Origin: Candidatus Heimdallarchaeota archaeon
Lineage (GTDB): Archaea > Asgardarchaeota > Heimdallarchaeia > JABLTI01
Assembly (NCBI GenBank): GCA_019058275.1
Contig: JAHLVW010000015.1
Coordinates: 64,001-128,000, forward strand
Length of the DNA: 64,000 nt
Reading direction: 5' to 3'
In this document: in pieces, positions 16,142-19,613 of the stretch
Layout of the letters: each line of letters opens with the position of its first letter
Position numbering within the stretch: position 1 is the first letter of the stretch
Translations under genes and position numbers: made by a program
Notes under the pieces: generated by a model
The model's database searches: none
What the model saw: the letters and a program-made list of their open reading frames with translations, nothing else
Told to the model about the DNA's origin: nothing

Positions 16142-16648
16142 TCAGTTTTGCCTCACTGATACGGACTTCTAGGACAATTTTTCATGCCAAAAAGGTAATG
16201 TTTTGCAGCTGGAAGAGCAACAATCTCTTTTCGTATTCTATCGTCTTTTAAATATTACTACAAGGAACGCATTTCAAGATTATATTTAGTTATTTCTACT
16301 ATCTACATGCTATTAATAACATATTATTTTTCGAAATTCGATGGCATAATCTGTGAACGAACACGAATTGTAAATAATTAGAATATAATCTTGATGATTT
16401 AATGCAAATCATGATGAATTGTAACAAATCTAGTAGATGCAGCTATATATTGAATTTCCCCTGAGTTTTTACTTTCTGACATATCACATATTTATTATCT
16501 TTTTATATAATTAAGTAATAACTTAGTCAAATATTTTTCCATTAGATTGAAATAAAATCGGGGATTTTTAATGTCTTATTTTAAGAATAGTTGTGAGTAG
16601 AGTAGAAACTCTGAGGTCACAAGCATAATAATTGAATGACCCTTTCCA
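16142..16648. promoter_or_regulatory. AT-rich divergent promoter region between the rpoB operon and the Rag-like operon
   Basis: No ORF of 60 aa or more; TATA-like tracts near 16246-16255 (minus) and 16500-16510 (plus). Confidence 0.5.
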
Positions 16649-17626
16649 TTGGATGGATTTTACGTGCAAACAAATAAACAAGAGCTGGAACTTGAAACGG
16701 AAAAAATACTTTTGGCAGGTCTAGATAATGCTGGGAAAAGCTCAATTCAAGACATTCTGAAATTTACACCAATTGAAGCTGCACTCCGAAGAGTCCCAAG
16801 TAAGGATTTGGAAATCTTTAACAAGAATTTCTTGAAGAAGAATTATATTTTCTTTGTACCACCTGGACAAGAAGATCTCAGATTAAATGAATATCATGGT
16901 TCAATGAGAGAGGAATATTTTGGTAATGTTAGCACATTTATTTTTATCATCGACTCATCAGACGATTTGAGATTTAAGGAAGCAAGTGCAGAATTACAGA
17001 GATCTATTGAAGACTTACTAGATCTTTCTCCCAACTGTAAGAGCTTTCTAATTTTTGCTCATAAACAAGACCTCAATAACGCATCAGATGGGATGAGAAT
17101 AAAAAAAGAAATCTTGGATCCGTTAAAGCAATTGTATCCAGGGATAATTCTACAATTCAAAATATATGAAACAACGGTACTGAATCCTGAGACTATTCAC
17201 GAACCATTTGTAAGAGCTATTGCAAAACATGTTGGTATTGTAAGAATTGATTTTGATAAACTGGCTGAATGGATAAGAGAAAAGGTGAGAGCTAGAATTG
17301 TTCTAATTACTGATCCTAATGGTCTGCTTATTGGCGAGTCTTTTACAGGGGAAGAGAATTCGTTAGTATATGCTGCTTATGTAGCAAAGATTTTTTCAGC
17401 AACAGAAGATTTCCAAAGTGATTTGGAAGGAGATAGTGTGAAGATAATTTTGTTAGAAGAAAATAGCGAAAATCATTACAGCATCATTTCAAGAATCAAT
17501 TGTTCAAAGAATGATTATTTGGCTTTGTTTATTGGAAATCCTTTGGCGAATATTGGTATGACACGGTTAGTAAATAAGAAAGGACTTCAAAAATTAAAAG
17601 CTGCTTATAGTAATTACAAGGAATAA
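16649..17626 (+). CDS. RagA/Gtr1-like small GTPase with a C-terminal Roadblock/LC7 domain
   Basis: G1 GLDNAGKS, PGQ switch II, YFGNVSTFIFIID, LSPNCKSFLIFAHKQD (Rag-type HKxD G4). C-terminal IVLITDPNGLLIGE..NIGMTRL Roadblock pattern. Start may be GTG at 16664. Confidence 0.8.
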   Translation: MDGFYVQTNKQELELETEKILLAGLDNAGKSSIQDILKFTPIEAALRRVPSKDLEIFNKNFLKKNYIFFVPPGQEDLRLNEYHGSMREEYFGNVSTFIFIIDSSDDLRFKEASAELQRSIEDLLDLSPNCKSFLIFAHKQDLNNASDGMRIKKEILDPLKQLYPGIILQFKIYETTVLNPETIHEPFVRAIAKHVGIVRIDFDKLAEWIREKVRARIVLITDPNGLLIGESFTGEENSLVYAAYVAKIFSATEDFQSDLEGDSVKIILLEENSENHYSIISRINCSKNDYLALFIGNPLANIGMTRLVNKKGLQKLKAAYSNYKE

Positions 17627-17673
17627 AGAGTTAGGTAAAAAATCGAGTTAACTTTGAGTGGTAAGGTGTTTAA

Positions 17674-18750
17674 ATGAACCAAACAGATGATATAACAGCA
17701 GTATTAGTGGAATTCGATTCTATTAAGGGGCCAGTTATAAGAAAAAAGCAACCTGCAAGTTACATTTTCCCTGAAAATTCTGAAATGGAAAGTGTATTAA
17801 TGTGGGCAATTAGGGCATCTGAATTTTCCGTTCGTAAAATTGAAAAGCAAACAGCTTATGCAAAAGCGATTTCATTAAGAGACCCTAATTTCACCCGCAA
17901 GAAAAGACAATTCGGTATTGCACTAATTACTGAAACAACAATGGATTTAGGAAAGGCAGAATCCATTCTTGATAAGATTATTTCTGTTTGTGTAAAAGAA
18001 AGTGAAAATAAACCATATTTCAAAATGCTGAATGGTTTACTCATTGCAATTGGTGATTTTCAACAGATCATTAATGGTGAATCCTTAACAACAAAGAATC
18101 CAAACATTATAAATCAAAAAGAGAAAACGAGTGATTCTAATGAAAAGGAGGATAAATATAACGAGCAACAAATACAACAATACTTACTAATGAGCAACAG
18201 ATTGAATCTTTTCAACAAGATTACTTTTCTAGATAAAGAGAATAACACAAAAACAATTGTTTGCTTAGCAGAAGGGTTTAGCAAAGCTAATGGAGTTTTT
18301 GGCGTACCTTACGAATATACATCAGATAGATTTAACATCCAAGTGGATTTACGATATGAAATTCCAGAGGGATTAGAACAAGGTCTCGAGATATTAGCAA
18401 GGATACTTAGTACTATGACAACTGGTAAAGAATTCAACGAGAAGGTATTGGTTTCTGCGGAATTTATTGATAGATTGCTTTTTGAAAAAGTAGATATAAA
18501 ATATTATCTCCCATTTTTACAATATTTGATTTCAATGGATCATTTTACAATAACTGAATTCAAAACAGAAGAGTATAAAGAACAATATGCAAGTTTGAAA
18601 GAAACTCATGGAGATTGGATAGATTGCTTAATTGGCAAGGAATTTGATGGCCAAAAATTATCTGAATTCTTTAAAATCACTGGAACCAACAAGGAAGGAT
18701 TAGAACTACTTGTAGACTTATTATTTGTGAAATTAATTGCAATTTTTTAA
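17674..18750 (+). CDS. NPRL2/FLCN-like longin (uDENN-type) domain protein with a C-terminal winged-helix-like segment
   Basis: N-terminal VLVEFDSIKGPVIRKKQP and LRDPNFTRKKRQFGIALI longin motifs; C-terminal FDG..LVDLLFVKLIAIF. Confidence 0.65.
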   Translation: MNQTDDITAVLVEFDSIKGPVIRKKQPASYIFPENSEMESVLMWAIRASEFSVRKIEKQTAYAKAISLRDPNFTRKKRQFGIALITETTMDLGKAESILDKIISVCVKESENKPYFKMLNGLLIAIGDFQQIINGESLTTKNPNIINQKEKTSDSNEKEDKYNEQQIQQYLLMSNRLNLFNKITFLDKENNTKTIVCLAEGFSKANGVFGVPYEYTSDRFNIQVDLRYEIPEGLEQGLEILARILSTMTTGKEFNEKVLVSAEFIDRLLFEKVDIKYYLPFLQYLISMDHFTITEFKTEEYKEQYASLKETHGDWIDCLIGKEFDGQKLSEFFKITGTNKEGLELLVDLLFVKLIAIF

Positions 18751-18794: not shown

Positions 18795-19613
18795 ATGGAA
18801 ACAGAAAAGGCAAATAGCTCATGGATGATTCCTGGAAAACCAGCAATCGAGTTCTATGAAGAAAAGTTCGGAAAAACATTGGTAATTGCAGATTTGCATC
18901 TAGGATTTGTCTATGGGCAAAATAAGAAAGGAATTCTTATACCTGTTTCCAAAAGACCTGAAGAAGAACTTGTGGAATTAATTGAAGAAAGAAAACCGAA
19001 AAGGTTAATCATAGTAGGAGATTTTAAAGACGAGATATTTGGAACTGCGCATCCTTTGGCTGGTAGAGCTTGGAAGCTCCTACGAAGAATGTTGAATCTT
19101 ACAAGACTGACTATAATTAAAGGGAATCATGATGGGAAAATTGAAGAGATACTCCCAGATGAAATCGAACTTATTCAACCATCAGGTTTAGTTGTGAAAG
19201 AAAAGAAGGAAGGATTATCAGTGGGATTATGGCATGGTCATGCAAATCCTGTCTTGGATGTTTATTCTGCTGATGTAACCATATCTGGACATGCACACCC
19301 GACTTTTGCTTTTCGTGATGAAATTGGTACAAAAATTACAGAAAAAGTTTGGGTGAAAGCAAAATGGTTGCACGCTGAAGGAGATCAAGAGAGATTACAC
19401 ATAATTTTGCCTGCTTTCAATAAGTATCTTGATGGCTTTTCTATTGATGGGAAATTCTTCAAAACAATAGTAACAATGAAAGAAGGAATTGATTTTGATA
19501 ATGCCGAAGTTTTTACTCTTGATGGTGTTCTAATTGGTACGATAAAAGAATTACAAGATGAAAGAATCATTTCTGATAATGAAAGAACAAAGAAGAGATA
19601 CAAGAAAAGATGA
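18795..19613 (+). CDS. Calcineurin-like metallophosphoesterase (COG1407/ICC-like)
   Basis: DLHLG, GD, GNHD, HGH and GHAHP motifs all intact. Confidence 0.9.
   Translation: METEKANSSWMIPGKPAIEFYEEKFGKTLVIADLHLGFVYGQNKKGILIPVSKRPEEELVELIEERKPKRLIIVGDFKDEIFGTAHPLAGRAWKLLRRMLNLTRLTIIKGNHDGKIEEILPDEIELIQPSGLVVKEKKEGLSVGLWHGHANPVLDVYSADVTISGHAHPTFAFRDEIGTKITEKVWVKAKWLHAEGDQERLHIILPAFNKYLDGFSIDGKFFKTIVTMKEGIDFDNAEVFTLDGVLIGTIKELQDERIISDNERTKKRYKKR

Follow-up and report, generated by a model that had tools for sequence, protein, structure and literature searches.

A candidate GTPase-regulator pair in Asgard archaea: a divergent Rag-layout GTPase encoded beside a predicted GAP-type longin

Eukaryotic GTPases of the Rag and Arf families are switched off by longin complexes, namely GATOR1, folliculin-FNIP and C9orf72-SMCR8, which matter in cancer, epilepsy and amyotrophic lateral sclerosis. 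Asgard archaea have been reported to contain Rag-like GTPases, for which crystal structures are available (PMC10933270; PDB 8yl2, 9m28), NPRL2-like longins (Liu et al., 10.1101/2020.10.19.343400), and longins of the FLCN/SMCR8 type with a Gly-Pro (GP) motif and an arginine (PMC12290439). Here we describe a locus within a 64,000-nucleotide stretch from Candidatus Heimdallarchaeota archaeon (contig JAHLVW010000015.1, positions 64,001 to 128,000; the window), in which the gene for a small GTPase with a C-terminal Roadblock domain (gene 1) is followed by the gene for a longin protein (gene 2). A preliminary description of the window had proposed the two as a candidate minimal Rag-GATOR1 module and a prokaryotic version of the amino-acid-sensing switch.

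Longins that act as GTPase-activating proteins (GAPs) share a signature. In these proteins a GP motif is found at the b1-b2 turn beside an arginine finger; it is specific to FLCN, NPRL2, SMCR8 and C9orf72, and the combination of GP and Arg is absent from longins of the guanine nucleotide exchange factor (GEF) type (PMC12290439). Arginine fingers are known in NPRL2 (Arg78), Npr2 (Arg84), FLCN and SMCR8 (Arg147). The residues W33-D34...G38-P39 of C9orf72 are essential (PMC12290439). The GP motif has also been found in a class of Heimdall longins, and it was left as an open question whether ArfR or Rag GTPases are the partners of the Asgard GAP-type longins (PMC12290439). According to Liu et al. 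(10.1101/2020.10.19.343400), most Asgard genes for eukaryotic signature proteins lie outside conserved neighbourhoods; the operon that they describe consists of a Rab-like GTPase and a DENN protein.

Genes 1 and 2 are co-oriented and 47 bp apart, as had been noted, with open reading frames (ORFs) of 325 aa (TTG start) and 358 aa (ATG start), respectively. Both are real genes, having 39 and 46 homologues at 40-79% identity over their full length. It is probable that there is a direct functional link of some kind between them. The reading that we prefer, in which we place about even confidence, is that they form a co-transcribed and co-inherited GTPase/regulator pair, with gene 2 acting as an arginine-finger GAP, probably through R75. 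The folds, the motifs and their conservation, the coupling of the genes and their matching phyletic pattern are direct observations and are set out below.

Within the window's own family, gene 2 is carried by 11/11 other scored genomes, and the order GTPase, gene 2, phosphoesterase is found at every locus with enough flank. As these genomes are close kin, synteny of this kind would be weak evidence on its own. A profile of the longin domain also finds shorter partners (228-291 aa) in other families of the same phylum, namely f25 (the Njordarchaeota; 5/5 genomes), f24 (2/7) and f22 (1/1), and in each case a GTPase-Roadblock gene of 318-368 aa lies directly upstream. Of six of these loci, five have the two genes overlapping by 1-26 nt and one has them separated by 4 nt; at L013 and L014 they abut within 3 nt. 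For both genes the proteins of the other lineages are only about 20-25% identical to those of the window, and both are reciprocal best matches between lineages: the window's gene is the best match in its genome for the Njord GTPases, and the only match for the Njord longins. The pairing, whose adjacency had been singled out in the preliminary description, is conserved across Asgard genomes in four families including the Njordarchaeota. Among 400 Asgard genomes, the GTPase subfamily (>112 bits) and the longin are present in the same 19, the single exception being a genome in which the longin gene stands at the very start of its contig.

The Njord-type genomes G293-G296 (L068, L069, L071, L075) also show another conserved pairing of a GTPase and a partner, distinct from this one. 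Here, paralogous xPGQ/HKQD GTPases of 280-300 aa each precede, with overlapping frames, a protein of 248-268 aa that has an N-terminal transmembrane helix. Pairing of these paralogues with longins was considered and rejected, the downstream membrane-anchored proteins having no similarity to the longin profiles. Thus, the longin pairing is specific to one orthologous lineage of GTPases.

The most conserved residues of gene 2 are those that define GAP longins, and it is for this reason that a GAP with an arginine finger is put forward as the best single mechanism. F14, D15, G19 and P20 are invariant in alignments A1 (26/26) and A3 (11/11), as is E13 in the former (26/26), whilst D70 and K76 are invariant in A1 (27/27). 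R75, whose codon occupies 17896-17898, is present in 27/27 sequences of A1, bearing out the expectation that it is conserved in orthologues, and in 11/11 of A3. Across both subfamilies, E13, F14, D15, G19, P20, D70, R75 and K76 are invariant. In the AF2 model, R75 sits where strand 4 turns into strand 5 (E59-70 and E73-86), and G19-P20 open strand 2 (E19-26). Gene 2 therefore has both a GP motif and an arginine on a neighbouring hairpin, and the spacing of F14-D15-x3-G19-P20 is that of W33-D34...G38-P39 in C9orf72. The preliminary description had equated R75 with the NPRL2 finger; the aligned ranges (3-143 against 5-152) are compatible with a match to NPRL2 Arg78 or Npr2 Arg84, in a comparison made at the level of ranges only. 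The strings that had been quoted for gene 2, VLVEFDSIKGPVIRKKQP (residues 10-27), LRDPNFTRKKRQFGIALI (residues 68-85) and the C-terminal FDG...LVDLLFVKLIAIF, are all present. Among the eight Njord-type longin partners, the hairpin has an arginine in six, is rich in Arg/Lys in one, and has no arginine in the f22 member.

The AF2 model of gene 2, built from 28 orthologues, has a pLDDT of 80.5 overall and of about 90 for the longin domain, which in this model occupies residues 7-127. In Foldseek searches of the PDB with this domain, chains of the SEA complex and GATOR1 come top (E 2e-4 to 1e-3), followed by DENND10 and the FLCN-FNIP2 complex 6ulg, with ordinary longins appearing later (E 1e-2 to 7e-2). 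With VIA, the highest values are those of 9o5d_D (Z 11.2), 9o5a_H and 9v0j_A (Z 10.9-11.2); 7t3b_B, 8adl_S and 9h4q_T are also among the top-ranked matches, with SEAC chains at Z 10.3. Across the top GATOR1/SEACIT matches, 137-141 residues are aligned at Z 10.3-11.2, with an rmsd of 3.6-4.0; for the three highest the alignment comprises 137-138 residues (138 for 9o5d_D), model 3-143 against chain 5-152. The identity of the top chains as NPRL2/Npr2 is deduced from their length (363-370) and residue range, no name being printed. FLCN complexes give Z 7.7-9.1, and Sec22b, COPZ1, VAMP7 and Ykt6 give Z 8.6-8.9. In the ESM Atlas, a search by shape yielded hypothetical Asgard proteins together with three NPR2 clusters from eukaryotes and DENND10/Avl9. 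A search by features yielded an Asgard cluster (score 0.94), 19% of whose members bear NPR2, and, lower down and at the level of leads, clusters of NPR2, C9orf72, DENND11, Lst7 and NPR3. On these models, the N-terminal fold of gene 2 is a longin whose nearest kin are consistently GAP-type longins, by a modest margin, and the structural matches favour the NPRL2 type by a similarly modest one. More broadly, gene 2 is modelled as a divergent GAP-type longin of the folliculin/SMCR8/C9orf72/NPRL2 group.

The remainder of gene 2 is less familiar. Modelled alone, the C-terminal half has a pLDDT of 92.9, and a Foldseek search of the PDB with it gave nothing at E up to 0.001. A wider VIA search with residues from about 177 to 282 returned a list composed almost wholly of longin/SRX domains (Z 5-7.6), and as these Z values are modest, the assignment of the middle domain to a second longin-like fold is tentative. 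The last ~80 residues give weak winged-helix-like matches (Z 4.4-4.9), among them one between residues of about 281-358 and 8adl_S 236-306 (Z 4.9, 70 aligned); the likeness of the C-terminus to the NPRL2 winged helix, noted in the preliminary description, is weak. A folliculin-like DENN C-terminus was also considered and rejected, since no DENN/cDENN match was found anywhere in gene 2 and the middle domain matches longin/SRX folds. As modelled, the layout of gene 2 is neither that of NPRL2 nor the longin-DENN layout of folliculin. The family is small: a search of 5.8 billion clusters finds 46 proteins, and one of 1.8 billion finds 12 representatives. Nearly all are labelled as Heimdall-group or unclassified Asgard; the three that are labelled Bathyarchaeia, Zixibacteria and Thorarchaeota may be mislabelled metagenome-assembled genomes.

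At the level of sequence the kinship points elsewhere. Pfam NPR2 (PF06218) gives no match in gene 2 (E up to 10), in 28 of its orthologues (E up to 1) or genome-wide, so that the NPRL2 likeness that had been claimed for gene 2 stands for structure, where NPRL2-length chains are the best matches, and fails for sequence. Pfam searches of the 28 orthologues gave nothing relevant, with a single Afi1 match at E 0.03, and the profiles built from the Njord-type partners (A6, A7) likewise had no relevant match in the PDB. PF11704 (Folliculin) does not match gene 2 itself; it does match the Njord orthologue L029, over the hairpin region, with 23.4 bits against a cut-off of 23.3. Two longins with Folliculin-type N-termini are encoded elsewhere in the same genome, one of 444 aa (G000:C55:35307-36641; L077:508-1842) and one of 379 aa (G000:C69:75635-76774; L078:636-1775). 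They score 28.1 and 26.4 bits, exceeding the Pfam Folliculin cut-off. FDDxxGP and an RG..R hairpin are present in both, and no Gtr1_RagA match lies close to either gene on its contig. Comparison of the gene 2 longin profile A3 with these two by hhalign gave a probability of 86.8% and E 4.3e-6 over 96 columns, with FD..GP exactly aligned (to FDDKQGP and FDDTIGP) and the Arg hairpin within one residue (TRKKRQFG against ARGRRRALG). Homology to Folliculin-family longins is therefore detectable at the profile level, and by sequence the nearest family is folliculin-type and not NPRL2.

Gene 1 has the Rag/Gtr order of a G domain followed by a C-terminal Roadblock domain, as the preliminary description had recognised. 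Its best PDB sequence match by phmmer is LokiRagO of Lokiarchaeota (8yl2_A, E 6e-11, residues 17-284), and it aligns to yeast Gtr1 (8fw5_D) over residues 18-305, spanning the G domain and the Roadblock domain. The Roadblock model Robl_LC7 gives 19.2 bits (E 1e-3), which is under the Pfam cut-off, and PF03259 is annotated on the orthologue P0091. Arf (55.5 bits) and Gtr1_RagA (50.8 bits, cut-off 22) both exceed their cut-offs; the Gtr1_RagA model also gives matches in the controls, E. coli and M. jannaschii. As other genes of the same genome match Gtr1_RagA far better (79-120 bits, compared with 51), gene 1 is, as judged by these profiles, a divergent Rag-layout GTPase and no clear RagA orthologue. 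Two divergently oriented genes about 1.8 kb apart (G000:C55:246249-249090), with ORFs of 566 and 427 aa, have the strongest Gtr1_RagA matches in the genome (84 and 120 bits) and perhaps form a more canonical pair of Rag-like genes. A close paralogue of gene 1 was sought in the same genome and not found, which leaves a homodimer as the only simple dimer option; by analogy with the solved Rag and LokiRag proteins, dimerisation would probably occur through the Roadblock domain, as it does in the heterodimers of eukaryotes.

All the motifs quoted in the preliminary description of gene 1 (GLDNAGKS, VPPGQ, FGNVSTFIFIID, SPNCK and HKQD) are present. A His instead of an Asn in G4 is a trait of the Rag family. 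Of the canonical Rag/Gtr motifs, G1 and G4 are intact and the Asp of G3 is replaced in 22/22 sequences: F69, P72, G73 and Q74 are invariant (22/22), with V or I at position 70. All the paired GTPases of the other lineages (L013, L014, L029-L034) likewise have F-x-x-P-G-Q, in which V, I or A takes the place of Asp, and most of them have HKQD. In addition to Gln74 and HKQD, the paired subfamily has an invariant Pro-Ser at the position of the switch-I Pro-Thr of Arf. The xPGQ form of G3 suggests that this subfamily handles Mg2+ and nucleotide in an unusual manner. Loss of the G3 Asp could weaken the binding of Mg2+ and nucleotide, making exchange or stabilisation the regulated step.

Positions of the features of the locus within the window are listed below.

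Table 1. Features of the GTPase-longin locus (window coordinates; residues are those of the encoded proteins)
Feature	Position	Strand	Basis or remark
Gene 1: Arf/Rag-like small GTPase with C-terminal Roadblock domain	16649..17626	+	Pfam, PDB sequence matches
G1/P-loop GLDNAGKS, residues 24-31	16718..16741	+	G24, G29, K30 invariant in 22 sequences
Atypical G3 VPPGQ, residues 70-74	16856..16870	+	Asp of DxxGQ replaced by Val/Ile; catalytic Gln74 retained
G4 HKQD, residues 138-141	17060..17071	+	H138, K139, D141 invariant
Shine-Dalgarno-like GGTAAGGTG, 5 nt 5' of gene 2 ATG, in the 47-bp gap	17660..17668	+	Sequence inspection
Gene 2: longin, disordered linker, second longin-like domain, winged-helix-like end	17674..18750	+	AF2 models, fold searches
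N-terminal longin, residues 1-135, topology b-b-a-b-b-b-a-a	17674..18078	+	AF2 secondary structure, VIA, hhalign
F14-D15-x3-G19-P20 at b1-b2 turn (GP motif with aromatic-Asp pair)	17713..17733	+	Alignments A1, A3
R75-K76-K77-R78 at b4-b5 hairpin; R75 candidate arginine finger, R78 alternative	17896..17907	+	Alignments, AF2
Charged variable linker, residues 137-165	18082..18168	+	pLDDT <50; poorly conserved columns in alignment A1
Second longin-like alpha/beta domain, about residues 177-282, without GP/Arg motifs	18202..18519	+	VIA-wide Z 5-7.6
Conserved helical winged-helix-like C-terminus, about residues 274-358 (THGxW, REGLELLxDLLF)	18493..18747	+	Invariant columns
Gene 3: SbcD/PdeM-like metallophosphoesterase, 44 bp downstream of gene 2	18795..19613	+	Pfam, NCBIfam

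The true start of gene 1 is more probably the GTG at 16664, giving a protein of 320 aa, than the TTG at 16649, as the recorded copy P0055 (320 aa) and the orthologues begin there. The element GGTAAGGTG may work as a Shine-Dalgarno site for gene 2, and the 44-bp gap before gene 3 contains a GGAG 12 nt before its ATG. Gene 3 scores 30.9 bits with Pfam Metallophos and 83 bits with TIGR00024, the latter under the cut-off, as is PdeM. Wherever the flank is assembled in the window's family, gene 3 follows the pair directly. It is not present at the Njord-type loci, and for that reason it is taken as a probable passenger peculiar to the window's family. On the other side, an AT-rich spacer of 507 bp (16142-16648) separates gene 1 from a divergently oriented RNA polymerase subunit B gene.

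In the mechanism that we infer, the two proteins would bind physically, with the N-terminal longin of gene 2 docking on the GTP-bound G domain of gene 1. Arg75, as the probable acting residue, would enter the nucleotide pocket beside Gln74 and act in the GAP direction, stimulating the hydrolysis of GTP. The second longin-like domain of gene 2 might replace the second longin subunit (NPRL3, FNIP or C9orf72) of the eukaryotic heterodimers, and the dimer states of the proteins, like any upstream signal, are likewise conjectural parts of the scheme. When the full-length products of genes 1 and 2 were co-folded in the presence of GTP and Mg, the score was 0.01 (mark 0.32), which is uninformative either way.

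Several observations weigh against a GAP that acts through R75. Most longin/DENN regulators are GEFs or platforms, and as the GTPase has lost its G3 Asp, its nucleotide cycle may be unusual. No sequence match was found for gene 2 in Pfam, NCBIfam or the PDB (phmmer; profile A1). The claim that gene 2 is closer to NPRL2 than to generic longins holds by a small margin of ~2 Z, and the Lokiarchaeal longin 8yqg (Z 10.7) ties with the NPRL2-length chains (Z 11.2). R78 is nearly as conserved as R75 (27/27 in A1 and 10/11 in A3), and it is R78, not R75, that hhalign sets on a conserved Arg of the Folliculin-type longins. The arginine is also not universal, since the f22 partner (L034:979-1806, minus strand, genome G283) keeps GP and has no hairpin Arg/Lys (QQLNSYHQFSLV). 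The GTPase of this f22 locus has NKQD instead of HKQD, and the pair there may have degenerated or may work by a different mechanism. Finally, the co-occurrence of the two genes comes from about four lineages and thus represents few independent events. None of the findings that the preliminary description had named as fatal to its proposal was obtained outright, the margins and sequence links being weaker than it had claimed.

The strongest competitor, which we regard as possible though somewhat unlikely, is that gene 2 is a cognate partner of another kind, a GEF, a platform or scaffold specific to one nucleotide state, or an effector, as in the parallel cases of DENN, Mon1-Ccz1, TRAPP and Ragulator. 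On that view the basic hairpin would be conserved for binding, or for contacting a membrane or nucleic acid. The coupling of the genes fits such a partner equally well, the arginine-less f22 orthologue is still paired, the GTPase lacks the G3 Asp, generic longins are only about 2 Z lower, and a GEF role was proposed by Liu et al. (10.1101/2020.10.19.343400) for another Asgard longin/DENN module. Against this, FD..GP with Arg has been reported as GAP-specific and absent from GEF-type longins (PMC12290439), no other part of the gene 2 longin is as conserved, and the nearest families by fold, features and profile are all GAP longins. It is a good deal less probable that the genes are mere neighbours in one transcript whose products do not interact directly, the likeness to GAP longins reflecting shared longin ancestry only. 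Gene 3 does show that unrelated genes can ride in a family-conserved block; however, gene 3 is not kept outside the family, whereas the order of genes 1 and 2 is kept, with frames overlapping in 5/6 loci, at about 20-25% identity, and the two match in phyletic pattern across 400 genomes and are reciprocal best matches.

Least probable of all, and by our estimate very unlikely, is a true orthologue-level Rag-GATOR1 module that senses amino acids, with gene 2 as its NPRL2 and gene 1 as its RagA. NPRL2/Npr2-length chains are indeed the top structural matches, the C-terminus has its weak match to residues 236-306 of a SEAC chain, and gene 1 has the HKQD form of G4 and a Roadblock domain. These points are set against the blank result with Pfam NPR2 in gene 2 and the genome, sequence links that go to Folliculin, and a second longin-like domain that NPRL2 does not have. 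Furthermore, no NPRL3-like paralogue was detectable in the genome with profile A3 and no PI3K/TOR kinase domain was found in it (the genome is 92.8% complete); gene 1 scores slightly better with Arf than with Gtr1_RagA, for which other genes reach 120 bits as against 51; and no feature of the locus is tied to amino acids, the neighbour being a phosphoesterase. The Rag-GATOR1 module and the amino-acid-sensing switch of the preliminary description are thus analogies, not findings.

Beyond the GAP reading lies a more far-reaching proposal, which we hold to be rather unlikely: that these two proteins, needing no others, prefigure the Rag off-switch of eukaryotes, with one chain of two longin-like domains taking the place of NPRL2-NPRL3 or FLCN-FNIP, and that the client GTPase, having lost its G3 Asp, depends on its partner. 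The partner might in that case supply acidic residues (E13/D15/D70) as well as an arginine for productive handling of Mg2+ and GTP. If the proposal were true, longin arginine-finger GAPs and their pairing with Roadblock-bearing GTPases would predate eukaryotes and TOR.

A conserved Rag-longin operon is not described in PMC10933270, in PMC12290439 or by Liu et al., and the Arf-family preprint contains no neighbourhood analysis; the conserved GTPase-longin pairing therefore appears to be unreported. What is new here is the conserved pairing with its matching phyletic pattern, the predicted architecture of two longins and a winged helix, and the Asp-less G3 of the client GTPase. In reply to the question raised in PMC12290439, comparative genomics names a specific candidate GTPase partner for one Asgard family of GAP-type longins. 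As the proteins are small (320 and 358 aa), with no membrane segment detected in either, a pre-eukaryotic GAP mechanism is testable in vitro, and the atypical G3 offers biochemistry a second, independent oddity.

The closest described relatives of gene 2 are the Asgard FLCN/SMCR8-type or NPRL2-like longins with GP and an arginine finger (PMC12290439, Traffic 2025; Liu et al., 10.1101/2020.10.19.343400). Set against the 14 Asgard longins of PMC12290439, by description only, the gene 2 family has in common with them the N-terminal longin, the GP motif at b1-b2, the hairpin Arg and hosts of the Heimdall group. Unlike them, gene 2 has diverged beyond the reach of the Folliculin and NPR2 models of Pfam, its longin is followed by a predicted second longin-like domain and winged-helix-like tail in place of DENN or two-component domains, and it lies in a conserved operon with a specific GTPase.

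NPRL2/Npr2 (6ces, 7t3a/b, 8adl, 9o5d), which in GATOR1/SEACIT are the catalytic subunits that act on RagA/Gtr1, are the best structural matches, with an Arg at a comparable hairpin position, a Roadblock-bearing GTPase as the target (here a predicted one) and possibly a winged-helix-like C-terminus in common. NPRL2 has C-terminal winged-helix repeats (PMC3747258), and its C-lobe pairs with NPRL3. Gene 2 differs in having no sequence-level similarity to it and in its extra middle domain. The comparison with GATOR1 also fails in that no NPRL3-like partner or TOR kinase was found, DEPDC5/IML1 not having been searched for, and in that a single gene is present here, so that longins could pair only within one chain or in a homo-oligomer. 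Folliculin-FNIP (Lst7-Lst4), the GAP for RagC/D (PDB 6nzd, 6ulg, 8dhb), is the only family linked to gene 2 by sequence or profile, and shares FD..GP and an R-x-x-(x)-R hairpin. In contrast to Folliculin, gene 2 has no DENN domain after the longin, its hairpin is one residue shorter, and its structural Z with FLCN (7.7-9.1) is lower than with the NPRL2-length chains.

On the side of the GTPase, gene 1 shares its two-domain layout with LokiRagO and LokiRagM (8yl2, 9m28; Asgard RagGtr/ArfL groups), but gene 1 and its paired orthologues have F-x-x-P-G-Q where LokiRagO has WDLGGQ. Tran et al. (PMC10933270) state that MK-D1 does not, as a rule, have its GTPase genes in one operon with genes for Roadblock or longin proteins, whereas gene 1 shares its operon with a longin gene. 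Another prokaryotic small GTPase encoded beside a regulator of the Roadblock/longin superfamily is MglA, whose partner MglB acts as its GAP. MglB is a single Roadblock domain and, to our knowledge, supplies no arginine finger. The pair described here differs from MglA-MglB in that the partner is a longin with a eukaryotic GAP signature, and it is the GTPase itself that bears the Roadblock domain.

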